Shown: positions 4,249 to 33,159, numbered from the stretch's first letter. The stretch is DNA of 36,645 bases from Candidatus Helarchaeota archaeon (GCA_029838215.1 JALGVI010000023.1:1-36645); one strand, 5' to 3'. Notes: generated by a model from the sequence alone, not told the origin. A program made the numbers and translations.

Positions 4249-4358
4249 TGGCGCTGAGAGTGGGATTTGAACCCACGCTCCCCGAAGGGAAACAGGTCTC
4301 TCAAAGGTCATTTTCCCTGAACTCGAGCCTGTCGCCGTAGCCGCTTGGCTATCTCAGC
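4249..4358 (-). tRNA. tRNA-Ser(CGA) with 24-nt intron at 37/38 and encoded CCA
   Basis: Acceptor GCTGAGA/TCTCAGC, discriminator G, CCA. Anticodon stem ACAGG/CCTGT with CGA at 4325-4323. Intron 4321-4298. Long variable arm TCCC-TTCG-GGGA and T-arm GTGGG-TTCAAAT-CCCAC. Mature length is 86 nt. Confidence 0.95.
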
Positions 4359-18600: not shown

Positions 18601-20661
18601 ATGGATTTTGATGATCCTGTAGACATGATTGAAAATTTCTTGAATAATTTCGTAAATAAGGACAATGAATACTATTATAGAGAAAAAATTAAGAGTATGC
18701 CATACGAGGACAAGACTTTTCTCCTCATAAATTTTGAAGACTTCTTTAAGTTCAATCCATCATTGGCTCGTGAGTTAATTGAGAATCCAAACAAAATTTT
18801 ACTTGCTGCCAATCAAGCAATAAAAAAAGTGTTGGAAAAGGTTGATAAGGACTTCTACGACTTAAATCCAGAATGTATTGCAAGATTTTCTAACTTAATT
18901 TCTGATTATCACGTTGACTTGCGTGCCATTAGAAAAGATCATATTGGAAAATTCGTACAAATTCACGGAATATTAAGTAGGGCTTCTGAAGTAAAGGCCC
19001 AAGTCATTAATGCTGCTTTCGAATGCCAACATTGTCAAACGATCAACCTCATTGAAGTTGATCCGTATAATTTTAAACCTCCCGTAATATGTAGCGAAAA
19101 TAGTTGCGGAAAACGCGGACCTTTTAAATTCATACCCGAGTCATCTATCTTTATTGATTGGCAAAAAATTCGGATACAAGAAGTTCCTGAAGAACTCCCT
19201 GCCGGTCAATTGCCGCGGTCATTGGATGCCATTTTAAAGAAAGATCTGGTTGATGCTGCACGTCCAGGAGATCGCGTGTCCATTACTGGTACCATCTATC
19301 CAATGCAAGATGCTCGAATGGGTAAGAAATTGAGCACGTTTCATGCCATTCTTGATGCAAATCACGTTGAGGTTTTTCAAAAAGAATTTGATAAAATCGA
19401 GCTTTCTAAAGAAGATGAAGAACGGATTGAAGAATTCGGGAAGGATGAATTCATACATGAAAAAATCGTGAAATCAATTGCTCCTTCTATCTTCGGCTAT
19501 AACGAATACAAAAAAGCTATCGCTCTATTTCTTTTTTCAGGTCGAAATAAGGAATTGGCTGATGGAATGAAAATCCGTGGTCAGACTCACATACTTTTGG
19601 TCGGTGACCCTGGTGTGGGTAAGAGCAAGCTATTACAATACGCAAAAATGCTCGCTCCAAGAGGACTATACACGTCAGGTAAGGGATCTACTGCTGCTGG
19701 TCTTACTGCAACCGTGATTCGAGATAAAGATACGGGTGAATGGACTTTGGAAGCAGGAGCTCTCGTGATTGCAGATCGTGGTGTTGCCTGTATAGATGAA
19801 TTTGATAAAATGAATGAATTCGATCGATCTGCTATTCATGAAGCAATGGAAGAACAAACAGTTCACATTACGAAAGCAGGGATTAATGCCAGCCTGAACG
19901 CACGGACTTCAATCTTAGCCGCTGCAAATCCAACATTTGGCAAATATGATCCTTTCAAGCCTGTTGGCGATAATATAAAAAAGCTATCACCTTCCATTTT
20001 ATCTCGATTTGATTTGATTTTTGTTCTTAAGGATGAACCATCTCCTAAAAAAGATGAAGGATTAACCGATCACATATTGGGACTTCAAGATCAAGATCTC
20101 ACTACACTCGAACCTCCAATAGAAATGGATCTATTGCGGAAGTACATCAGTTATGCACAAACAAACATCCATCCGGTTCTCACTGAAGAAGCCAAGCAAA
20201 TCATTAAAGAATATTACTTGAATTTGAGAAACATTTCCGAGACACCTGATTCTCCAATAGCCATTACACCACGACAACTCCAAGGTCTCATTCGATTAAC
20301 TGAAGCTCATGCTCGCATGGGACTGCGCGAAGAAGTAACCAAGGAAGATGCAGAAGCCGCCGTGGAAATAATGAAATTATCGCTTTCACAGGTAGGAATC
20401 GATAAAGAAACTGGAAAACCCGACATACTCGTTCTCACCGCAGGTACGTCTCAAAGTCAAATTTCTCGCCTGCAAAAATTAGAAGACATCATTCGACGCC
20501 TTTTCCTGGAAAATAATAAAGAACCAGTAAACAGAAAAAAAATTGTAGAAGAAGCAGAACGAGAAGGATTGGCTCATGATTTCATTGAAAAAGCCATTAA
20601 GGAATTGATTGACAAATCGATGATTTATCAGCCCCAAAAGGATCATTTTGCACCAATATAA
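18601..20661 (+). CDS. mcm: MCM replicative helicase
   Basis: Zn finger CQHC...CSENSC, Walker A GDPGVGKS, Walker B IDEFDKM, AAANP, arginine finger SRFD and C-terminal wH. No intein. Confidence 0.97.
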   Translation: MDFDDPVDMIENFLNNFVNKDNEYYYREKIKSMPYEDKTFLLINFEDFFKFNPSLARELIENPNKILLAANQAIKKVLEKVDKDFYDLNPECIARFSNLISDYHVDLRAIRKDHIGKFVQIHGILSRASEVKAQVINAAFECQHCQTINLIEVDPYNFKPPVICSENSCGKRGPFKFIPESSIFIDWQKIRIQEVPEELPAGQLPRSLDAILKKDLVDAARPGDRVSITGTIYPMQDARMGKKLSTFHAILDANHVEVFQKEFDKIELSKEDEERIEEFGKDEFIHEKIVKSIAPSIFGYNEYKKAIALFLFSGRNKELADGMKIRGQTHILLVGDPGVGKSKLLQYAKMLAPRGLYTSGKGSTAAGLTATVIRDKDTGEWTLEAGALVIADRGVACIDEFDKMNEFDRSAIHEAMEEQTVHITKAGINASLNARTSILAAANPTFGKYDPFKPVGDNIKKLSPSILSRFDLIFVLKDEPSPKKDEGLTDHILGLQDQDLTTLEPPIEMDLLRKYISYAQTNIHPVLTEEAKQIIKEYYLNLRNISETPDSPIAITPRQLQGLIRLTEAHARMGLREEVTKEDAEAAVEIMKLSLSQVGIDKETGKPDILVLTAGTSQSQISRLQKLEDIIRRLFLENNKEPVNRKKIVEEAEREGLAHDFIEKAIKELIDKSMIYQPQKDHFAPI

Positions 20662-20717
20662 TAAATAAATTAACAGATGCATTTTTCGATCAATTATTTT
20701 CTCGGGTGTGAACGAAT

Positions 20718-23039
20718 ATTCTGATTAAAGACTTACCGCTTCCCGATGTCGTCAAAAAGGTTCTTCAATCTCGAGGAATATCAAGTTTATATCCTCCGCA
20801 AGAAGAAGTTGTCAAGAAAGGTTTGTTTTCTCAAGAAAATTTCGTTGTTTCCATTCCCACGGCATCTGGTAAAACGTTGATAGCAGAATTGGCATTTCTC
20901 GATACTTTTTTAAAAAATAAAGGAAAAACACTCTATCTCGTGCCATTGAAAGCACTTGCTAGCGAAAAACTCGCGGAATTTAAGCAGTGGGAAGATCTAA
21001 ACATGCTATCAGTAACTCAATCGACTGGAGATTTTGATAGTGGTGAACCCGATTTAAAAAATTATGATCTCATCATCCTCACTTATGAAAAACTCGATTC
21101 CCTGTTGCGACATGGCGTGTCTTGGATGGAAGAAGTCAAGACGATAATTGTTGATGAAATACACCTCTTGAATGATCCTCATAGAGGACCGACTCTTGAA
21201 GTCGTTCTTGTTAGATTAAAAAGAATGGTTCCGCTTGCCAGAATAATAGCACTGAGTGCCACCATTCAAAATGCTCGAGAAATCGCTGGATGGCTTGACG
21301 CTACTTTAATTTCTAGCGAATGGCGACCAATTCCATTGCATGAAGGAGTAATGCTTGAAAATACCATCTTTTTTCCAGAAAAAAAAATTACATTAGAAGT
21401 TACTGATAAAGATCCATTAACCAATCTTGTTTTTAATAGCCTGAAGCAAGGTTTTCAAGTCCTGATTTTTTCGAATACAAGACGTTCAGCAGCAAAGCTT
21501 GCCAGAGATTTGATGCATCATGCTAAAAAATTTCTCTCTCTAAACGAAAAAAAGGAACTGCAAGACATTTGTAAGGCACTCGAAAAAACTGGGGAATCAT
21601 CACGGTTTCTTCAAGACCTCATTCAATGCACGCAAAATGGTAGTTCATTTCATCATGCTGGACTCAATTTTTCTCAAAGAAAAATCATAGAAACGCATTT
21701 TAAGAAAGGATTCATAAAAGCATTATGTGCCACGCCAACGCTCGCTATTGGGGTTAATCTTCCTGCCCGGAGAGTCATCATAACAAGCTATAAAAGATAT
21801 GATCTTGATTTTGGGCTTCGAGACATCCCTGTTTTAGAATATAAACAATTCGCAGGTCGTGCAGGACGTCCATTTTATGATGCTCTGGGGGAATCCGTGT
21901 TAATATCAAAGTCAGAAATGGAAAAAGAATTTATTTTTGAAAAATACATCCTAGGAAAACCCGAAAAAATCATTTCAAAAATCAGCCGCGAATCTGTATT
22001 GCGCGTTCATATCTTATCATCCATTGCAATGGGATTTACCAAAACCGATGAAGAATTACATGCATTCATAAATGACACTTTTTTTCTATTCCAGCACCCT
22101 GACCGAGATCTTGAAGCACAAGTAGATAATATTCGTTCATTTCTCCTTGAAAATAAATTTATATCCCGTCAAAAAGGAAAGTACCATCCAACTGCATTTG
22201 GAAGGCGCGTATCTCAATTATATATAGATCCATTGTCTGCAATGTTACTGAAAAATGGTTTGGATACAATGATAAGGCAAAAAAAGACCACTAGCCTCGG
22301 AATTCTGCATTTAATTTGCCGCACGCCGGATATGGACAAGAGATACCTGAGAGGACATGAAGAAGAAAAATATCTTCAATTCGTAAAAAATCATTCGACC
22401 GATTTCTTGTTTGATTTGATGTTTAATCCTGCCGATCCTCTTCCTTCAATGAATATTCCCGAGCCACAATTCTATTCTGCCAAAGAAATGCTGGAAAAAG
22501 AATATGCTTCGTCACAAAAAATCGAATTATGCTTTGTAGATGAATGGTTTCTTAGAGAAGTAAAGACCGCTTGTCTGCTATTTGATTGGATAAATGAAAA
22601 AAATGAAGAATATTTGATGAACACTTATGGAGTACAACCTGGAGACCTATTTCGCTATGTCGATCGGGCAGATTGGTTATTATATTCCTTAGAACAGTTC
22701 TATAGGCTTTTTAATTTTAAAACCCCTAAAATTAAAACACTGATTTCGTCCCTGCGCCTTAGGATTAAGTACGGAATCAAGCAAGAACTGACCGATCTCA
22801 TTTTGATAAAAGGAATTGGAAGGAAAAGAGCACGAACCTTGTTTTCACGGGGAATAAAATCTCTTGAAGATCTAAAAAAAGCACCAGCAAAGGTCTTGGT
22901 TTCCCTCCCAAGCTTTGGACCCGAGTTAATAAAATCCTTTGGCAAACAATTAGAAATCGATCCAAAAATAATCAATAGAATGCTCGAAAAAAACAAAAAG
23001 AAGAAAAAGTCTCAACAAGACCTCCAAGGTTTTCTCTAA
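20718..23039 (+). CDS. hel308: Hel308/Ski2-like SF2 DNA helicase; N-terminus extends 35 codons upstream of the track start
   Basis: IPTASGKT, DEIH, ALSAT, FHHAGL, GVNLP, QFAGRAGRP and C-terminal HhH (GIGRKRA). In-frame upstream codons give ILIKDLPLPDVVKKVLQSRGISSLYPPQ (Q motif) back to TGA 20709-20711. Confidence 0.93.
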   Translation: MLIKDLPLPDVVKKVLQSRGISSLYPPQEEVVKKGLFSQENFVVSIPTASGKTLIAELAFLDTFLKNKGKTLYLVPLKALASEKLAEFKQWEDLNMLSVTQSTGDFDSGEPDLKNYDLIILTYEKLDSLLRHGVSWMEEVKTIIVDEIHLLNDPHRGPTLEVVLVRLKRMVPLARIIALSATIQNAREIAGWLDATLISSEWRPIPLHEGVMLENTIFFPEKKITLEVTDKDPLTNLVFNSLKQGFQVLIFSNTRRSAAKLARDLMHHAKKFLSLNEKKELQDICKALEKTGESSRFLQDLIQCTQNGSSFHHAGLNFSQRKIIETHFKKGFIKALCATPTLAIGVNLPARRVIITSYKRYDLDFGLRDIPVLEYKQFAGRAGRPFYDALGESVLISKSEMEKEFIFEKYILGKPEKIISKISRESVLRVHILSSIAMGFTKTDEELHAFINDTFFLFQHPDRDLEAQVDNIRSFLLENKFISRQKGKYHPTAFGRRVSQLYIDPLSAMLLKNGLDTMIRQKKTTSLGILHLICRTPDMDKRYLRGHEEEKYLQFVKNHSTDFLFDLMFNPADPLPSMNIPEPQFYSAKEMLEKEYASSQKIELCFVDEWFLREVKTACLLFDWINEKNEEYLMNTYGVQPGDLFRYVDRADWLLYSLEQFYRLFNFKTPKIKTLISSLRLRIKYGIKQELTDLILIKGIGRKRARTLFSRGIKSLEDLKKAPAKVLVSLPSFGPELIKSFGKQLEIDPKIINRMLEKNKKKKKSQQDLQGFL

Positions 23040-24403: not shown

Positions 24404-25567
24404 TTAGTCCTGAAAAATCCTTGCATTCCTTCCTAAACCGAGTGAAATTATGCTCGATTCGTCCACGTGTTCTGTCGGTGGAGTCTTTCGGTCAACTCTT
24501 AAATAAACTCCATTAAAGACTTCTTCTGAACTCAGTTTTAAATCATCAACGCGAATTTTCGGAGAATTAACATCGTTAAAATACCTGCCACTCAGATCAA
24601 AATTCTTCTTCAAGTCCATCCCCGAAACCATGCTTTGGACGGGAAACGGAATGCCTTCTTCAATGCCTTTAATGAATATTAAATTGAAGATCTCAGGAGT
24701 TTTGGATTTAATCCAGTCGAGGATAATCGGTTCGATATGATTTATAAAAAGTTTGTTTCCTGCCCATGAAGACCATTTCTTCATGAAGGCACGTCTCCCT
24801 GCTCGAATAAGTGTTTTTAAAATTGGTGGATGAGGTACAAAATTAAAGTGTGAATCTTGTAAATTATAGAATTTTTTAGACTGCAAGCCGTCCCAGAATG
24901 CGCCATATGCATCGTAGTTGCTTTTCCATTCGAACATCGTGTTAAAAACACCACTGATATATGTCAATCCAACGTGATACATTGCATTTGATCGATGCGG
25001 ATCTCGTTCATTTCGCACGTCTTTTAGGATGTCAATCATGCGAGTTGCCGCTCCTGAAAGTCCTTTTTTCATCTTTATCGGCAAATCTTTTAATTTTGTG
25101 CCAAGTTTTAAATGCCGTCGGTCCAAAATTTCGTCATCTGGTCCCGCCAACCACCAATCTATTGGCATGCCATCATTTAACGAACAGTTCACGACAAACA
25201 TTGCATCCGATATTTCTGAAGCAATGACGTATGAGCAATCCACGTCGGATCCAAACAAAAGTTTCATCGAACCTTGTTGCGTGTCGCTCCGAATGGCAAC
25301 AATCGGAGGAAAAAGCGTGTACGTTAGGACCCTCCACGGTTTCTTTAACTTGCCTTCCAAGACCGCCTGAGCGGTCAAGATCGATTCCGTCAGCCGTTCT
25401 TTTAGCAAGTCATAAATTAAATCCGAATTTAAAACCGAATCATGTGCCCTTTGCTCATAATATTCCCATCCCAGCTCTTTGATGCATTTAAATATCTGCC
25501 TCCCGAGTAGGAAATATCCCCTATTCCTTACGGATTTTGGAACTTCGTTAATCGTGACTTGAGTCAT
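24404..25567 (-). CDS. Hypothetical soluble protein (387 aa)
   Basis: Long open frame with protein-like composition and W/H/D/R-rich motifs (RSDTQQGSMKLL, PIDWW, LDRRHLKLG, DVRNER). No family recognised. Confidence 0.8.
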   Translation of the reverse strand: MTQVTINEVPKSVRNRGYFLLGRQIFKCIKELGWEYYEQRAHDSVLNSDLIYDLLKERLTESILTAQAVLEGKLKKPWRVLTYTLFPPIVAIRSDTQQGSMKLLFGSDVDCSYVIASEISDAMFVVNCSLNDGMPIDWWLAGPDDEILDRRHLKLGTKLKDLPIKMKKGLSGAATRMIDILKDVRNERDPHRSNAMYHVGLTYISGVFNTMFEWKSNYDAYGAFWDGLQSKKFYNLQDSHFNFVPHPPILKTLIRAGRRAFMKKWSSWAGNKLFINHIEPIILDWIKSKTPEIFNLIFIKGIEEGIPFPVQSMVSGMDLKKNFDLSGRYFNDVNSPKIRVDDLKLSSEEVFNGVYLRVDRKTPPTEHVDESSIISLGLGRNARIFQD

Positions 25568-25863: not shown

Positions 25864-26349
25864 TTAGGCAGCTGGAATTGTCGGAAATAACAGGTTAATA
25901 TATGGAATGGGAATTGGAGAAAGACCCACGAGCCAAACAACAATGTTATTGTAGATAATGATGAAAATCGTCGTTAGAAGTGCCACGTAGAAAGAATCCT
26001 TGTGATCCGTGTCAAAAATGGCTTTTACAAGGAAGAACCATGCCGCAAGGATGATGATGAAATCAATTCCAGCAATCGGGTCAAAAACGAACGTTGAGGG
26101 AATGCTTGCCGTGTTTGCCATTGCAACAGCGAGTTGATAGGGTAAATGGAGAAATAAAGCAAGACCCATCTGGATTATCACTATGATTATTGCAACTAAG
26201 AAGCACCATCCAAATCGCTTCCCTTCATCACGTGATTTTCCCGCTATGAGGCGAAGAGCTGCCCAACAAAAGACTGCCAATAGAGCAATTGTTGCTATAA
26301 AGACTAGAATTGTCAATACTAATTCTATTTGCAAAATCATCACGCCCAA
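25864..26349 (-). CDS. Hypothetical membrane protein (about 4 TM)
   Basis: Four hydrophobic segments of about 20-25 aa separated by short charged loops. Confidence 0.75.
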   Translation of the reverse strand: MGVMILQIELVLTILVFIATIALLAVFCWAALRLIAGKSRDEGKRFGWCFLVAIIIVIIQMGLALFLHLPYQLAVAMANTASIPSTFVFDPIAGIDFIIILAAWFFLVKAIFDTDHKDSFYVALLTTIFIIIYNNIVVWLVGLSPIPIPYINLLFPTIPAA

Positions 26350-26525: not shown

Positions 26526-27254
26526 CTATTCTTTGGTCGAATATGCAAACAGAATGAGGGAGATAATGATCAAAGAAGAAGAGGTAATGCTTATGGGGAA
26601 ATAAAACCCTATAGAAGTCAAAACGGACTGAATCGTTTCTCCAATCTGTGTATATAGAAATCTTCCAGCAAACCAAATCGTAAACCCTATTCCATTTAAA
26701 AGCGCGTTAATTCGGGGTTGACCGGGAATTAAATAAGCCATCCAGAAAAATAGAACCAAGATCGAAATTGCATAAATCGGGACGATGATTATGTTCACGA
26801 AATAGAATGGATGAGGAGAAAAAATCCAATCGGGTGGTACTATGAAGTACATGACTCCCATAACTATCGGTGGAATGACGTAAACATATCCTAGTTTTTT
26901 AGGAATGGATTCGTTTTCAATGAGCAGTTCTGCAACTACTATAGCCATGCAAGCAAAAGAAAACCACTGAAAACCAACTCCCATTTTTTCAACGATGGGA
27001 TTTTCAACAAAAAAATCATTGATGACGTGAAATACTCTTCCGACAGCGCTAAAAATGAAAAACAAAGAAAAGCTCAACCAATAAATCTGTTGTTCTTCTT
27101 TTGGCTTGAATGCATACCTGTTAAGGAATAAGTAGGTAAACATCAGAAAATAGTAACCAACTGTTAGAACCCAAAACCCAACGGCTATGGCTTCACCCCA
27201 GAGAAGAGGGTATGCTTGAAATTTTGCATCCAAAGTGCCTATCAAAAAAATCAC
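26526..27254 (-). CDS. Stand-alone 7-TM membrane protein
   Basis: Seven hydrophobic segments counted by eye, with intramembrane Arg in TM2 (AVGRVF) and TM6 (FAGRFL). No cytoplasmic output domain. Confidence 0.78.
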   Translation of the reverse strand: MIFLIGTLDAKFQAYPLLWGEAIAVGFWVLTVGYYFLMFTYLFLNRYAFKPKEEQQIYWLSFSLFFIFSAVGRVFHVINDFFVENPIVEKMGVGFQWFSFACMAIVVAELLIENESIPKKLGYVYVIPPIVMGVMYFIVPPDWIFSPHPFYFVNIIIVPIYAISILVLFFWMAYLIPGQPRINALLNGIGFTIWFAGRFLYTQIGETIQSVLTSIGFYFPISITSSSLIIISLILFAYSTKE

Positions 27255-27454: not shown

Positions 27455-28018
27455 TCAATTAGAAAAAAATGACCATATATTTTGTTTCCACGTATCATAC
27501 ATTAAGCTCAGATTTCTAAATAGCTCCTTTTCCTCGAAGGTGAGCTTTTTTACGAATTTTTCTGCTTCTTTTAATGTAATGATTTTTAATATCTTATATG
27601 ATCTTCGTTCAATAATGGTTTCAATTAAATTCTTTATTTGCCGTCCCTTTTCAAAGGATTCAAGTTTTTCTTTATTTGCTTCTTTTAAACTCTCTTCGAT
27701 CAAGTAGTTCGTTAGCAAGTAAAAACTCTGTTCTAATTTTTGCAATTCAGTATTATTTTCTTCTTTCCAGAGAACTCTATCGAGGTCGGATATATCTATA
27801 ATTTTTGGGTGAAGCACTTCAATTCGTTCATCGTGGAGGAATTTTTTTACTTTCCAGAATTCCAAGGTTGTTTCCGTCTTGGGAGATAGGACGTTCAGTA
27901 CCTTCCCATCTTCCGAAATTACTGGAATTTCCTTCAATACCCTCACTCTAAACTTCATGTTATTCCAGTAGATATTAAAGACACGATTTATTCCTCTATA
28001 TAGCATGTTGATCTCCAT
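27455..28018 (-). CDS. GINS subunit, Gins23/Psf2-type (B domain before A domain)
   Basis: N-terminal beta B domain (VRVLKEIP...ETTLEFWKVKKF...IEV), then helical A domain (LQKLEQSFY, IERRSYKILK, KLTFEEKELF). Confidence 0.75.
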   Translation of the reverse strand: MEINMLYRGINRVFNIYWNNMKFRVRVLKEIPVISEDGKVLNVLSPKTETTLEFWKVKKFLHDERIEVLHPKIIDISDLDRVLWKEENNTELQKLEQSFYLLTNYLIEESLKEANKEKLESFEKGRQIKNLIETIIERRSYKILKIITLKEAEKFVKKLTFEEKELFRNLSLMYDTWKQNIWSFFSN

Positions 28019-28042
28019 GATCAGAATTTTTTTCGATCAATC

Positions 28043-31000
28043 TTAGATTAAAACGAATTCGACTTCACTAGAGTTCTTGTCTTGGTTTATTTTTACTTCT
28101 TTCGCATCGGAATAAAATGACGGACCTAAAACGTTTCGGAAAAGCTTGATATTACCTTCTTGCTCAGAAACAAAGCCAACGACTTCATCTGGCTCAAGTG
28201 CTGCTGGCGCAATTAGCATCTCTTCAGAATCTCTCAATGCGCCGTAATATAACTTATAATTTGTTAGTTGCCAAATCCTAATGTTTGGAAACGTTAATAA
28301 TTTATTGACGAGTATGTTTATTTTCGACAAGTCAAAATCGGAAAAAATGTGAACTCTCACGTGCTCGGGGATATCTTGAAAGACCTCATCGGGAAAACTC
28401 GCCAAATCGGGAATGATTATTGTAATTGAACTCCTTGCCCTCTTTATCATCTCAATAATATGAGCATTCACGCGATTGGCTGAGGTAATGGTCCATGTCT
28501 TATCCATTCCCGTATCTGACATTTTTTCAACTTCATTCCACGTTTCTTGTAAGATATTTTTGACGTCCTTGACTTCAACATCAACCTCTCTAAAATCATC
28601 TTGAATTTTCCTAATGACTTCATCTACTCCAAGCGAAGTAGTTGAACGCAGTTTACCCAAACCCGAATCTATCATGTACTGTAAGTCATCAATAGTCTTA
28701 GAATAGTTGGATAACAATCTTCCTGACTTCATTTCAAGCTCTTGCTCAAATAATTGAACCATGTTTTTCAAGGAATCAAAATGATTTAATAGCTGTGTTT
28801 TTATTTCAGAGGATAATTCCACCGAGTCTTGTTTTGCGTCTTTTAAGAATGTGGAAAATTCTGCAGTCAGAATTTCAATGCCAGATTTGGATATCGCCTC
28901 TAATTTGTCAAAAAGGTCATCTGCTGCAGTAAATATTAATTTCTGAACATTTCTTGCAAAGATGTCATATTCTTCCAAGAATTGAGGCATGATGTTTGAC
29001 ATCTTCTTTTCAATTGGAGCAATTTTTTTTCCATATAATGAAGAATTCCCGTTAATAACTAATTCAATTGAATTTCTCGTTCTATCTAATCCTGTATTTA
29101 GTGCTGATGATTTAAATTCGACGATTTGTTTCTTTAATTGGTCTTTTCTAAGCTCAAAGTTTTGGTGAAATGCCTGTAAACTGGTTCTGAAATCATCGAT
29201 TAAGGTGTTTTTTATCCCCGTCTGCTCCTCCTGAATCTTCAAAATGTTCTTTTCAGTTAATTCATTCATTCGAATTTCATTTTCACGTGTTATGTCCTTC
29301 AATTGATTTTTCATGTGTGAATAGACATCATCTTTACCACGTTCAATACCATCAATGGTTCTTTCGAATGCCTTCATTAGTTTCGCATGTTGTACTTTAA
29401 AATCATCTTCAATTTCAGTAAACGTTTCTATAATTAATTCCATTTTTTCTGAAAATGATTGTTCTAAGTCCACCCGAGTTCTTTTAGTCGAGCTCGTCAA
29501 TTTTTCTGAGAATTGTGAGAGCTTCTCAAATGACTCTTGCATTTCAAGAATTTTTTCTTGCCAAGTCGAGAGCGTTTCCGTCAAGTTATTTGAAAGTTCG
29601 GCATTCAGTGCCTTATTTGATGTTTGAACTTGTTTAAATGAATTTCGAATTATCTTTGAAATCTCGTTTGAAACGTTGTCAAACTTAGATTTACTGGTAT
29701 TTATCCGATCTCCGATAACCGTGTTGATGCTAACAATTATATTGTTAAGGAACTGCTCGCTATTAATGGTTTCTTTCGCTATCGCCTCATTAAATGTAGA
29801 TTTCAAGGTTTCTGAAAGCATTCCAAAATCCGTAGCATGTTTATCAAGAGAATTCGTGAGATTGTCTTTGATCAAAAATGATGATTGCTTGAGCATTTGA
29901 AGATAACGATTAAATTCTTCTGAAATTTTCGATTCGAATTTCTGAACTTCTCTCAACGTTTTCATCTTTTTCTCCATGCTTGTCTTAAAATTATCTCTAA
30001 ATGCAGTCAATTTTTCATTTATGGCGGTTAAATGAGAAGTAATGGATGATGTCAATCTTTTTTGAACGGTTCCCAGTAAATCCTTAACCAGTGAATGTTG
30101 TTTTGTTGAGGAATCGAAGATCCTTTTTTGCATCTTATCTATGAATTGTTGAAAGGAGTCTGAAAACTCTTGAATTAACAAGTCAGTAGCTTCATTGCCT
30201 TTTTGATAATTCTGTTCTAATGTTTCGATTCGATCCGTTAGATTTTTATCGAAATTCTCTCTAAAAACTGCCATCTCGGTATTAAATGCTTCGAGTGATT
30301 CAGTTATATAAGATACTGTATCATTTTTTATTTCTTTTATGCTTGAATTAATTCGTTTTAGTTCATCTATTACTCGATTCCTAAATTGAATCTCAAAGCT
30401 CTCTTCTTCTCGTAAAATGTTATCAATTTGGGAATCTATTATTTTTTGAATGATGTCTTTTAACTCAAAGACTTGTTTTTCAAAATCTTCTGAATTTTCG
30501 GATAACTTGTCTGAAATCTGATTCTTTAAGCCGCTAAAACTTGATTTCATGCTTATGATTTTTTCTTGGAAAATCGTAGAAGTATTGGTCAAATATTCAT
30601 TAAATTCCGACTGTATGCTTTCTAGATGTTCCTTTAAATTTTGATCTATTGTTAAAATCATGTTCGTACGGTTTTTTTCATCAAGTTTTTGATTTTGCAA
30701 TATCATGTCTGTGAGTTTTTTGTCTAAATCCTGCATGAATGTATTCGAGAAAGCACTAAATTCGTTAATTCGACCTCGAAGTTTTTCTTGTAAGTCTTTG
30801 ATTAAATCCGAGTAAATCGTTAAATTTTGAGATAAGAACTCATTAAATTGGTTTTCAACATCTTCCTTTATTTCATCAACCGCCATTTTTTGGATTTGCA
30901 TCAAATTCTTAACAGAATCGATTCGACCAACTGATTTATCTTGAATCATCTTTATTAAAGATTTTATCAAATGTTGTTCTCTTTCCCTAATTTTCTTCAA

Positions 31001-32002
31001 TGTTTCATCTACACTTCGCAAGAAGCTCTTTATCGTGCCGATTTGTTGACTTTTTAACTCCGAAGAATTCTTTTGATAAAATTCTAATACACGGGGAAAA
31101 AACTTGATAAGCTGTCTTTCAATCGTTGAAAAAATACTATCTAGAGTTTTATTATGTTCTTTCAACAAATCTAATGCCGATTTCTCAAGATTTCCAGATA
31201 GGTCTTCAATTTCAGATGCAATATTTGAAAGAGATTGAAATAACTTATTCTTTAACTCTAAGCTTTCATCTTGAAATAATTTTAACGAATTTTGAAGATT
31301 TGAGGATAAAATTTCAAATTGATTTTTAATATTCTCTTTTTGAGGGGCAATTAATTCTAATGCTTTCTCTTCTAAAGCGTCTTTTTTCGATAATTTGATT
31401 TTTTTAATTTCATTTAATCGATCCGTAAATTGATCAGTAAAAGTGTTTTTGATCTTGTTCATGCGAGATTCAAAAACATTAAGATATTCTGAAAACATGC
31501 TTACTAACCGATTATTGAGCCTGATTGAGTTCTTATCGATCTCCTCAAAAGTAGATTGAGCCAGTCTGGATTGGTCATCCGTAAAGCCCCCTGAGTCTGA
31601 TAATAATTCCTTTTGGTATTCCAACTTCTTTTTTATCTCATCAATTTGTTTTTCGACATTCTCATGCATTGCATCTGACAATCTGCTAGAAAATTCTCTG
31701 ATATCATCGTGAATTTTCTTAAAGAATGTTTCTAGCCTTTCTATCTCAAGTAGAAATCCTTGATATGGAGGCAAGGCACGATATCGCTGAGCCTTTCCAG
31801 GTAATTTCTTGATGAGCTTCAACTTTTCTAATTCTTCCACGGTCGTCTTCAGACGATTCAAGTCTTCTCCACTCAAGATAGAGAGTTCTCCAACCGAAAT
31901 ATTTCCATTTTGTAAGATTAAACTGAGAACTTTAGCTTGATTTTCGTCAAGTTCATAAGTTTTTTTAAGTAATTTATTAAGGGCTTCGGACATAATTACC
32001 AC
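28043..32002 (-). CDS. TrmB-family protein with about 1,070-aa amphipathic helical/coiled-coil insertion
   Basis: N-terminal TrmB wHTH (LDENQAKVLSLIL..G..SVGELSILSG...LEKLKLI...QRYRALPP). C-terminal TrmB-type alpha/beta domain from W1170 (AHIIEMIKRARSSITIIIP...ALRDSEEMLIAP). The middle is rich in E/K/L/F/S with very few Pro or Gly. Confidence 0.8.
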   Translation of the reverse strand: MVIMSEALNKLLKKTYELDENQAKVLSLILQNGNISVGELSILSGEDLNRLKTTVEELEKLKLIKKLPGKAQRYRALPPYQGFLLEIERLETFFKKIHDDIREFSSRLSDAMHENVEKQIDEIKKKLEYQKELLSDSGGFTDDQSRLAQSTFEEIDKNSIRLNNRLVSMFSEYLNVFESRMNKIKNTFTDQFTDRLNEIKKIKLSKKDALEEKALELIAPQKENIKNQFEILSSNLQNSLKLFQDESLELKNKLFQSLSNIASEIEDLSGNLEKSALDLLKEHNKTLDSIFSTIERQLIKFFPRVLEFYQKNSSELKSQQIGTIKSFLRSVDETLKKIREREQHLIKSLIKMIQDKSVGRIDSVKNLMQIQKMAVDEIKEDVENQFNEFLSQNLTIYSDLIKDLQEKLRGRINEFSAFSNTFMQDLDKKLTDMILQNQKLDEKNRTNMILTIDQNLKEHLESIQSEFNEYLTNTSTIFQEKIISMKSSFSGLKNQISDKLSENSEDFEKQVFELKDIIQKIIDSQIDNILREEESFEIQFRNRVIDELKRINSSIKEIKNDTVSYITESLEAFNTEMAVFRENFDKNLTDRIETLEQNYQKGNEATDLLIQEFSDSFQQFIDKMQKRIFDSSTKQHSLVKDLLGTVQKRLTSSITSHLTAINEKLTAFRDNFKTSMEKKMKTLREVQKFESKISEEFNRYLQMLKQSSFLIKDNLTNSLDKHATDFGMLSETLKSTFNEAIAKETINSEQFLNNIIVSINTVIGDRINTSKSKFDNVSNEISKIIRNSFKQVQTSNKALNAELSNNLTETLSTWQEKILEMQESFEKLSQFSEKLTSSTKRTRVDLEQSFSEKMELIIETFTEIEDDFKVQHAKLMKAFERTIDGIERGKDDVYSHMKNQLKDITRENEIRMNELTEKNILKIQEEQTGIKNTLIDDFRTSLQAFHQNFELRKDQLKKQIVEFKSSALNTGLDRTRNSIELVINGNSSLYGKKIAPIEKKMSNIMPQFLEEYDIFARNVQKLIFTAADDLFDKLEAISKSGIEILTAEFSTFLKDAKQDSVELSSEIKTQLLNHFDSLKNMVQLFEQELEMKSGRLLSNYSKTIDDLQYMIDSGLGKLRSTTSLGVDEVIRKIQDDFREVDVEVKDVKNILQETWNEVEKMSDTGMDKTWTITSANRVNAHIIEMIKRARSSITIIIPDLASFPDEVFQDIPEHVRVHIFSDFDLSKINILVNKLLTFPNIRIWQLTNYKLYYGALRDSEEMLIAPAALEPDEVVGFVSEQEGNIKLFRNVLGPSFYSDAKEVKINQDKNSSEVEFVLI

Positions 32003-32008
32003 TACTCT

Positions 32009-32869
32009 CTACTCGCGTAAGAGTTCATTTACGATGTTGAAAATTTTAAGGATTCTTGAAATTGGGTACTGGATCTTTTTCCAATTTAAATGGTTTGGTG
32101 TTTTTAAATCAATTAGCAAGTGTAACGCTTTTTTAATGTTGTAATAATATACGTGTGAAGAATGTTTCAATAGAGCATTACGTGTTTCTTCGATTTTCTT
32201 GTTTACGTTTTTAATTCTTTTTGGATCATCGAATTTAAATTCTAGATACCACCAACCTAACATCTCAACATTAATGAGCAAGTTTAGGTCATAAAATGAT
32301 TCAAGTATATTAAGAACATCTTGCAATTCTGATTCGTCAATTGGAAATTCATTTTGCAAATTTAAAGTCACGATGCCTGTTTCAAAGTCAATTTTATTAA
32401 GCCTACCTTCATATATATATATAAAACTCTTGTTTGGTTCAATTTGAAAGAAAAATTTTTCATCTTTTCGGCTGAACTTTAATTCTAATGCATCACAAAT
32501 TTTATCAGGACTTTTTTTTGCCAATTTTTTTTCTCCAAGAAGTTCCAAGAAATCCATCAAATAGAGTTTGGAATCTTCAACCTCAACAATATAAGGTTTA
32601 CCTTTCAAGTAATTCTCGATGTTTCTCTTATGTTGCGTGTAGCAGAAGGCAGGAAGATCACCCGGTTTTACTTGTAGATCAATTAAAACGTTAATATATT
32701 TGCGATTTTCACAATGTGGTTGAAGAGCGCATTCGATTCGGTATTTCATGCAATTTTCACATTTTTGCCGCATTAATTCTAAGAATTCCTTTGCAATGTA
32801 ATTAACGCTCTTTAAATCATCGCTTCTTTTTAGGTATTTTGACAAGCTTTCTGAATATTTTCGAGACAT
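32009..32869 (-). CDS. Hypothetical protein with N-terminal Cys cluster (putative Fe-S or Zn site)
   Basis: C37-X2-C40-X6-C47-X5-C53, plus C76-X3-H80. Ends 6 nt before the start of the TrmB-coil gene. Confidence 0.78.
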   Translation of the reverse strand: MSRKYSESLSKYLKRSDDLKSVNYIAKEFLELMRQKCENCMKYRIECALQPHCENRKYINVLIDLQVKPGDLPAFCYTQHKRNIENYLKGKPYIVEVEDSKLYLMDFLELLGEKKLAKKSPDKICDALELKFSRKDEKFFFQIEPNKSFIYIYEGRLNKIDFETGIVTLNLQNEFPIDESELQDVLNILESFYDLNLLINVEMLGWWYLEFKFDDPKRIKNVNKKIEETRNALLKHSSHVYYYNIKKALHLLIDLKTPNHLNWKKIQYPISRILKIFNIVNELLRE

Positions 32870-33159
32870 TTCATTTCACCAAAGTTGCTATAAACATGCA
32901 TGTTTGAGGAAATCCTCGTGCTTTCCTTCAAAATTCCGTTTTTAAAGCTCTTGAAAGGATAATTTAACCGAGTAATTTCGATTAAAACCGTGATTTGGAG
33001 ACGATAAGATGAAAATCGCATCCGTGGTGTCACATGACTACCAAAAATAGTGATTCTCTGATAATAATACTAATAATATTCCAATATATATATCACGGCA
33101 GGAGCTTGCTACGATCTATAGAGAGATCCTCGTTGCAAAAAAAGAATGGAAAATGGTTT

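Follow-up and report, generated by a model that had tools for sequence, protein, structure and literature searches.

The window analysed here is a 36,645-nt stretch of the genome of a Candidatus Helarchaeota archaeon (GCA_029838215.1, JALGVI010000023.1:1-36645). On its minus strand it encodes a 286-residue cysteine-rich protein, followed directly by a giant protein of 1,319 residues and then by a Gins23-like protein, and the first two of these genes constitute a conserved two-gene module. The ends of the giant are those of a TrmB-type protein, most closely resembling the chromatin protein TrmBL2, with some 1,070 residues of hendecad coiled coil between them. The explanation that best accounts for our results, to which we assign a probability of roughly 0.6, is an Asgard-specific module in which a TrmBL2-derived giant with a hendecad rod and its cysteine-rich partner make up a structural rod on the nucleoid. 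Arf/Ras-type GTPases encoded on the longer public contig, together with neighbours in the Atlas, assign the organism to the Asgard phylum Promethearchaeota. Among the known prokaryotes, Asgard archaea are those most closely related to eukaryotes, and the organization of their DNA and cell interior is largely uncharted. Where the two genes of the pair are named in NCBI annotation, both are hypothetical proteins. The original prediction, made from the sequence of the window, knew of no characterized protein with TrmB ends joined by a helix of about 1,070 residues, and we likewise found no description of this family in the searchable literature on TrmB/TrmBL2, Asgard archaea, hendecads and coiled coils. 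One 2026 preprint lists TrmBL among chromatin protein classes, and nothing more. The features of the pair are the following:

32009 to 32869, minus strand: gene of the cysteine-rich partner protein (open reading frame of 286 residues)
28043 to 32002, minus strand: gene of the giant TrmBL2-like rod protein (open reading frame; 1,319 residues from the GTG at 32002)
31766 to 31969, minus strand: winged helix-turn-helix of TrmB type, residues ~12-79 of the giant (Pfam PF01978, E 8e-5; orthologue profile)
28523 to 31735, minus strand: hendecad (11/3) helical rod, residues ~90-1160 (periodicity, autocorrelation and register analysis)
28046 to 28501, minus strand: C-terminal PLD-like domain of TrmB/TrmBL2 type, residues ~1168-1319 (AlphaFold2 model and Foldseek)

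The rod (residues ~90-1160) contains four prolines and no cysteine. The helix of about 1,070 residues previously proposed to lie between the ends is indeed there, but it is hendecad-based and not a generic coiled coil: its hydrophobic periodicity is 3.67 residues, not 3.5, in almost all 100-residue segments. The autocorrelation of substitution scores peaks at lags 22, 88, 11, 44 and 66, with z-scores relative to shuffled sequences that reach 8.6 at lag 22, and is positive at all multiples of 11 out to about 400 residues, whereas at multiples of 7 it runs out of phase and becomes negative by lag 28-42. The 11/3 phase stays constant within about 30 degrees over residues 136-655 and shifts near residues 670, 820 and 950. 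Hendecad positions 0, 4 and 7 hold I, L, F, V or M in 60-79% of cases and positions 3 and 8 in about 40%; these core positions (a, d/e, h/i) correspond to the core pattern of hendecad coiled coils. The same register recurs in five orthologues, unbroken for up to about 970 residues (the phase spans residues ~89-1057 in genome G002 and 89-860 in G041), and the open reading frames adjacent to the partner gene in further genomes give P11/3 values of 5-19 versus P3.5 values near 0.

The rod attracts a number of database matches that are best read as a sign of common periodicity and not of family membership. The Pfam Apolipoprotein family (PF01442) matches the giant with an E-value of 1.4e-11 and 44.9 bits against a threshold of 90, profile comparison with the PDB matches the rod to ApoA-IV (E 5e-15), and the PADLOC model of ZorA3 matches it with an E-value of 7e-19 through positions of the model's tail only. 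With the ZorA tail and apolipoproteins A-I and A-IV, the giant shares profile matches over long stretches of the rod and the same kind of repeat. Unlike ZorA, however, it is devoid of a MotA/ExbB-like membrane domain and of transmembrane segments (19-residue hydropathy peaks at 1.25), and unlike apolipoproteins A1, A4 and E it stays below the PF01442 threshold and lacks proline-punctuated 22-mers, so that the likeness is one of composition and periodicity only. We also considered the giant as a component of a Zorya defence system and rejected this reading because the PADLOC matches are limited to the ZorA tail.

At both ends of the rod the TrmB fold that had been proposed was recovered, at the N-terminus by profile comparison and at the C-terminus by structure comparison. 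Taken alone, the giant matches Pfam TrmB (PF01978) over residues 12-79 with an E-value of 8e-5 and 22.9 bits, the gathering threshold being 25.6. A profile built from the first 200 residues of 36 orthologues matches PDB structures of TrmBL2 (5bpd, E 1.4e-13) and TrmB (3qph, E 4e-13), and aligns with residues 2-148 of TrmBL2, that is, with the winged helix and the helix that follows it. The short amphipathic helix after the winged helix, which pairs subunits in the TrmB/TrmBL2 family and is covered by the TrmBL2 alignment to residue ~147, is prolonged in the giant as the hendecad helix of about 1,070 residues. At the other end, the AlphaFold2 model of residues 1120-1319 (pLDDT 79.8) has TrmBL2 as its best Foldseek match (E 4e-10) and superimposes on the sugar-binding domain of TrmB (2f5t) with a TM-score of 0.55 and a root-mean-square deviation of 3.0 Å over 142 of 233 residues. 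After TrmBL2 and TrmB, the matches are nucleases of PLD fold such as NucT and Zucchini. Regulator_TrmB (PF11495) is matched by the C-terminal domains of 5 of the 12 aligned relatives (best E 6e-5) and not by the giant's own sequence. A search for the HKD motif in the C-terminal domain found none, and the second, sugar-binding barrel subdomain of TrmB is absent: the giant ends about 150 residues past the rod, and the model comprises a single PLD-like domain. Since there is neither an HKD motif nor anything after the PLD-like domain, this end resembles TrmBL2 and not the two-subdomain sensor of TrmB. Single-sequence PDB searches with the two ends of the giant, Gins23 and the cysteine-rich protein gave only weak matches, so that profiles had to be used, and a word-based homologue search with the giant returned only the giant itself, so relatives were taken from whole-genome and exhaustive searches.

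The giant thus shares with TrmBL2, the chromatin protein of Thermococcales (PDB 5bpd, 5box, 5bpi and 5bqt), the N-terminal winged helix with its helix and the C-terminal PLD-like domain, and, like TrmBL2, is without the sugar-binding second subdomain of TrmB (3qph, 2f5t). TrmBL2 has about 264 residues, to which the giant adds about 1,000 residues of hendecad helix between the two domains. It further differs from TrmBL2 in that its rod length is fixed within lineages, it has a cysteine-rich partner gene, and its single-sequence Pfam scores fall below family thresholds. The same genome has at least two further paralogues of this layout (winged helix-turn-helix, rod, PLD-like domain), a 294-residue fragment at a contig end and a 966-residue open reading frame (G000:C32:3430-4269 and G000:C1:62624-63451, both minus strand). 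Shorter ones, of 640-1,110 residues, were seen in 40 out of 41 searched genomes of the class.

The genomic distribution of the partner supports a conserved unit. Of 301 genomes of the phylum Promethearchaeota, 216, spread over 49 of 71 genera, gave a match to the cysteine-rich protein, and nearly every one of these gave a single match. Adjacency was assessed in 50 genomes, a non-random sample made up of the 30 best-scoring loci and 20 others picked to spread over families. In 35 of them, the next gene on the same strand after the cysteine-rich one encodes a winged helix-turn-helix followed by a hendecad region, which bears out the proposed linkage of the two proteins; in two, the locus is cut by a contig end. 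BLAST searches placed the cysteine-rich protein directly before the giant in G001, a genome of the same family (1,732 residues), in G002 (1,246 residues) and in G004 (cut by a contig end). The order is swapped, with the giant first, on two metagenomic contigs. Clustering of all neighbouring open reading frames revealed no third gene common across families around the pair. The conserved unit is therefore a module of two genes, the cysteine-rich protein and the giant, not of three. On the contigs with swapped order, a KaiC-like ATPase (PF06745, DUF7125) is encoded just upstream of the giant (L037:1033-1836 and L038:881-1684, both plus strand), and the opposite strand encodes a ParA/CbiA-like ATPase and HypA downstream. 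At one locus (L075:3-2532, minus strand, genome G167) the giant adjoining the cysteine-rich gene is split into two open reading frames of 380 and more than 443 residues, owing to a frameshift, a sequencing error or a genuine split.

The partner consists of an N-terminal helical domain with conserved cysteines and a C-terminal α/β domain (residues ~175-286). A word-based search with its profile returned only four proteins, while an exhaustive profile search collected 84 cluster representatives of 110-360 residues. Over 49 aligned full-length members, C40, P51, R56 and C76 are invariant and C37, C53, P73 and D99 nearly so; C37, C40, C53 and C76 are each retained in 48-49 members. If there is a metal site, these four cysteines are its putative ligands. 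A conserved cysteine set had been foreseen correctly, but the ligand pattern suggested for it, CX2CX6CX5C, has to give way to C37/C40/C53/C76, as 41 of 49 members (84%) have C47 and H52 is not conserved. The protein has no match in Pfam or NCBIfam. Its AlphaFold2 model is of high confidence (pLDDT 93.6); Foldseek found no PDB match for it at E <= 0.001, and a feature search of the Atlas gave no usable match. The C-terminal domain (175-286) weakly resembles YbjN and type III secretion chaperones, with Z-scores of 6-7.8 that are at background level for a wide structural search and TM-scores of 0.47-0.48 against YbjN-like Atlas clusters. In predicted complexes of the cysteine-rich protein with the N-terminal 200 and C-terminal 200 residues of the giant, the control scored as high as the test. 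In families f4 and f5 (L067:2485-3552, plus strand; L089:1386-2477, minus strand; five further loci), the cysteine-rich gene is followed by that of a conserved HEAT-repeat protein of about 356 residues with weak Cnd1/adaptin-like matches, which may be an alternative partner where the giant is not adjacent.

Giants adjoining the cysteine-rich gene in 26 genomes fall into the following length classes:

1,299-1,319 residues: 12 genomes
1,219-1,246 residues: 7 genomes
1,171 and 1,179 residues: 2 genomes
1,028 residues: 2 genomes
836 residues: 3 genomes
1,732 residues: 1 genome (G001)

The conservation of insert length, proposed as a check at the outset, is thus seen as a cluster near 1,300 residues that accounts for 12 of the 26 genomes. 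In families f10 and f11, several pairs of giants that are 29-45% identical can be aligned along some 1,300 residues, the only gaps being at the extreme ends. Such internally gapless alignments at this level of divergence indicate that the length or register of the giant is under strong constraint. Where the differences among the classes of 836, 1,028, ~1,225 and ~1,300 residues lie could not be placed; diagonal scans and pairwise alignments were uninformative, the rods being too diverged and the gaps scattered.

Two length changes could be located, and both lie near the middle of the rod. In the 1,732-residue giant of G001 (L013:5523-10721, plus strand), a segment of 417 residues, one residue less than 38 hendecads, has been cleanly and recently duplicated in tandem. 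The copies (383-799 and 800-1216) are mostly 40-68% identical, and their junction is no more than about 12 residues away from the midpoint of the rod. In the giant of G002, a deficit of about 59 residues maps to residues 538-636 of the window protein, beside the midpoint at ~605-625. Each of these placements would have a chance of about 5% if random. Length changes at the midpoint fit a pairing of position i with position L-i, and therefore hint at a fold-back hairpin or an antiparallel dimer. The rod centre is also the best-conserved part of the rod; on the other hand, no conserved proline or glycine turn is present there in 11 aligned members of ~1,300 residues, which counts against such a pairing. 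Judging from these sequence features, we lean slightly towards an antiparallel or folded-back rod of about 80 nm; a continuous parallel dimer of about 160 nm would be a credible second choice, and some other arrangement seems improbable. These lengths assume 0.15 nm per residue. The straight 160-nm rod of the original prediction thus survives as one of two topologies, while the midpoint length changes favour about half that length.

How might such a protein have arisen, and what would it do? In the explanation that we favour, the short helix between a winged helix of TrmBL2 type and an inactive PLD-like domain would have expanded into a hendecad coiled coil of ~1,070 residues, and Gins23 would have been brought next to the giant by local rearrangement. 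Homology suggests that the winged-helix head binds DNA in the manner of TrmB and TrmBL2. The rod, to judge by its length classes and mostly gapless divergence, would be a rigid element of fixed length serving as a spacer, ruler or tether on the nucleoid, and probably pairs with two-fold symmetry, folded back or as an antiparallel dimer, to span ~80 nm with TrmBL2-like heads. The partner, a soluble protein of ~290 residues with a probable Cys4 metal site in its helical N-terminal domain and an α/β C-terminal domain, would be a stoichiometric companion or adaptor of the giant, as adjacency kept in either gene order suggests. The fixed length, the lack of an NTPase and the dedicated partner all point to a structural role on the nucleoid, and a rod length held while the sequence drifts to about 30% identity points to a role in which distance matters. 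A more specific proposal, which we regard as tentative and rather doubtful, is that the pair forms an Asgard-specific, ATP-independent nucleoid scaffold, in which the fixed-length rod, anchored on DNA by its TrmBL2-like heads, keeps DNA segments ~80 or ~160 nm apart, or keeps DNA at such a distance from a second structure recognized via the cysteine-rich partner or the conserved rod centre. If true, such a scaffold would be a prokaryotic counterpart, in function and not in ancestry, of eukaryotic chromosome and nuclear scaffold tethers.

Comparison with known long coiled-coil systems helps to define what the giant is not. Like SMC and Rad50 proteins, it has a long rod on a DNA-interacting head, a possible antiparallel fold-back and a more conserved rod centre. 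Unlike them, it lacks a Walker A/B ATPase head and a recognizable hinge, its rod is hendecad and not heptad, and its head comprises a winged helix and a PLD-like domain. The claim that Walker motifs and a hinge are missing agrees with our searches, in which the giant contained no Walker A pattern and its Pfam and NCBIfam matches included no SMC, Rad50 or hinge family. In concept, the giant is reminiscent of RacA of Bacillus subtilis and of EEA1, which combine a DNA- or cargo-binding domain at one end of a long dimeric coiled coil with a different binding module at the other, and act without ATP; it is not known to be related to either in sequence or fold, and its rod is far longer than that of RacA.

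Several observations weigh against the structural-rod explanation or parts of it. The cysteine-rich gene has no adjacent giant in 13 of the 50 genomes, which belong to families f4, f5, f15, f19 and f25, so that the two proteins may at times work separately. DNA binding is ascribed to the giant by homology only. As to topology, the hendecad phase passes the geometric midpoint unbroken in six orthologues (a test that is blind to turns of 4, 7 or 11 residues), which a single continuous helix explains more simply, and the symmetry argument consists of just two events, examined post hoc. Finally, the 24-nt gap downstream of the giant leaves room for its possible co-transcription with Gins23 in this organism, although this arrangement is not conserved.

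Other functions can be envisaged for the giant. The one that fares best, although we consider it unlikely, is a cytoskeletal polymer akin to intermediate filaments, in which the DNA-binding domain would be a secondary anchor. Scy and FilP of Streptomyces, to which it might be compared, are non-heptad coiled-coil proteins, and the giant's rod is likewise non-heptad and very long; the presence of several paralogues per genome, as well as TrmBL2 PDB entries that describe an archaeal chromatin protein, would also fit. However, an open polymer accords less well than a discrete complex with a single-copy partner and a globular TrmB domain at either end, and fixed lengths are usually seen in rulers and tethers.

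Two further possibilities each strike us as improbable. The giant might be an ordinary ligand-responsive TrmB-type regulator of neighbouring genes, with the long helix as an exaggerated dimerization linker. Both TrmB domains are present, and most proteins of the TrmB family are regulators that respond to sugars, but the sugar-binding second subdomain is missing, just as in TrmBL2; a fixed-length rod of 1,070 residues has no place in a simple repressor, and the neighbours, except for the cysteine-rich partner, vary by lineage. Alternatively, it might tether DNA to a membrane or lipid surface, either by laying its 11/3 helix on the membrane, as the helices of apolipoproteins, perilipins and synucleins do, or by binding lipid head groups through the PLD-like domain. 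The 11/3 periodicity, the Pfam (E 1.4e-11, below threshold) and PDB profile matches to apolipoproteins A-I and A-IV and the PLD-superfamily fold of the end domain would all be in line with this. Yet the hydrophobic face is narrow, covering about 3-3.5 of every 11 positions (a, d/e and h/i, occupied by I, L and F), unlike the wide face of class A lipid-binding helices. There are four prolines in 1,070 residues in place of proline-punctuated 22-mers. The apolipoprotein match reaches half of the score that Pfam requires, no HKD motif is present in the PLD-like domain, and transmembrane segments are absent.

The remaining question is whether the third gene belongs to the module:

27455 to 28018, minus strand: gene of the Gins23-like GINS subunit (open reading frame of 187 residues; NCBIfam Gins23 and Pfam Sld5 matches)

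The Gins23-like protein scores 55 bits against NCBIfam Gins23 (cut-off 120) and 21.4 bits against Pfam Sld5 (E 3e-4, threshold 22.3), and its best PDB match is PSF2 (E 0.035). The other GINS gene of the genome, located after PriS on contig C2, encodes a Gins51_C domain, so that the one at 27455-28018 is probably the ordinary Gins23 of this organism. Its orthologues lie directly upstream of MCM on the same strand, at 204-247 nt, in G001 (L032, G001:C6:1-11000), G003, G005 and G006. In G002 and G004, where they are on a different contig from the giant, some 3 kb separate them from an MCM gene with an insert. Such linkage is known from other archaea, as in the gins23-mcm operon of Sulfolobus. In the window, MCM and Hel308 (18601-23039) are encoded on the strand opposite to Gins23, at a distance of 6.8 kb; given the close same-strand arrangement in four relatives, the usual Gins23-MCM pair has been broken by rearrangement in this lineage. 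One block of about 20 kb in G001 holds the pair, Gins23 and MCM, with the genes of the window in a changed order and orientation, with Gins23 about 9 kb from the giant on the other strand, which identifies the adjacency in the window as a local rearrangement inside a syntenic block. In both G001 and G002 the P-type ATPase gene converges on the 3' end of the giant, and no Gins gene is found there. A profile of seven Gins23 orthologues run over 27 other loci holding the pair detected no Gins, the copy in the window being the sole match. Gins23 is thus a local neighbour of the giant, a bystander and not a conserved part of the module. The MCM open reading frames themselves differ greatly in length, with 1,680 residues in G002 (L033:722-5761, minus strand), 1,362 in G004 (L034:927-5012, minus strand) and 686 in the window, probably owing to inteins.

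These data bear directly on the original prediction of a three-gene unit that includes Gins23, for which gene order had been named beforehand as a refuting test: Gins23 does not keep its place beside the giant. That the three genes form one chromosome-organization and replisome module, in which the rod tethers or bridges replisomes via Gins23 as a substitute for SMC or ParAB that needs no ATP, is very improbable, for despite their shared orientation, the 24-nt gap, the presence of MCM and Hel308 within about 9 kb and the single ~20-kb block of pair, Gins23 and MCM in G001, Gins23 adjoins or is near MCM and not the giant in all six relatives examined, was not detected at the 27 other pair loci and follows an arrangement familiar from other archaea, while the pair resides in many neighbourhoods without replication genes. 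A replisome link, however tempting, loses support through the gene-order survey.

The layout of the locus itself is as first described: three co-oriented genes, head to tail, with gaps of 6 nt between the cysteine-rich gene and the giant (from its GTG start) and 24 nt between the giant and Gins23. In public gene calls, the giant starts three codons inward at the ATG at 31993, giving 1,316 residues and a first gap of 15 nt, within which a GGTG-like motif precedes the ATG; this start is more likely than the GTG at 32002. The G+C content of the three-gene region (~32%) is the same as that of the remainder of the window. Upstream lies the gene of a P-type cation ATPase, separated from the pair by one further feature:

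32870 to 33159, minus strand: AT-rich intergenic region of 290 nt upstream of the cysteine-rich gene (sequence reading)

This region is likely to be the promoter of the pair and contains a TATA-like TTTATAG some 20-25 nt ahead of the ATG of the cysteine-rich gene. A scan for promoters and terminators of bacterial type, unsuited to archaea, gave counts at the level of shuffled sequences. Downstream of the three genes are three proteins without a known family, a tRNA-Glu gene and aTrm56, and farther downstream, on the opposite strand, a helix-turn-helix protein, Hel308 and MCM. The three proteins (24404-25567, 25864-26349 and 26526-27254, all minus strand) have no Pfam family; the orthologue of one of them, of 387 residues, divergently adjoins Gins23 in G006 (L026). 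Elsewhere in the window, a 107-nt Rfam tRNA match (4252-4358, minus strand; 47.6 bits), absent from the ARAGORN output, is probably an intron-containing tRNA gene.

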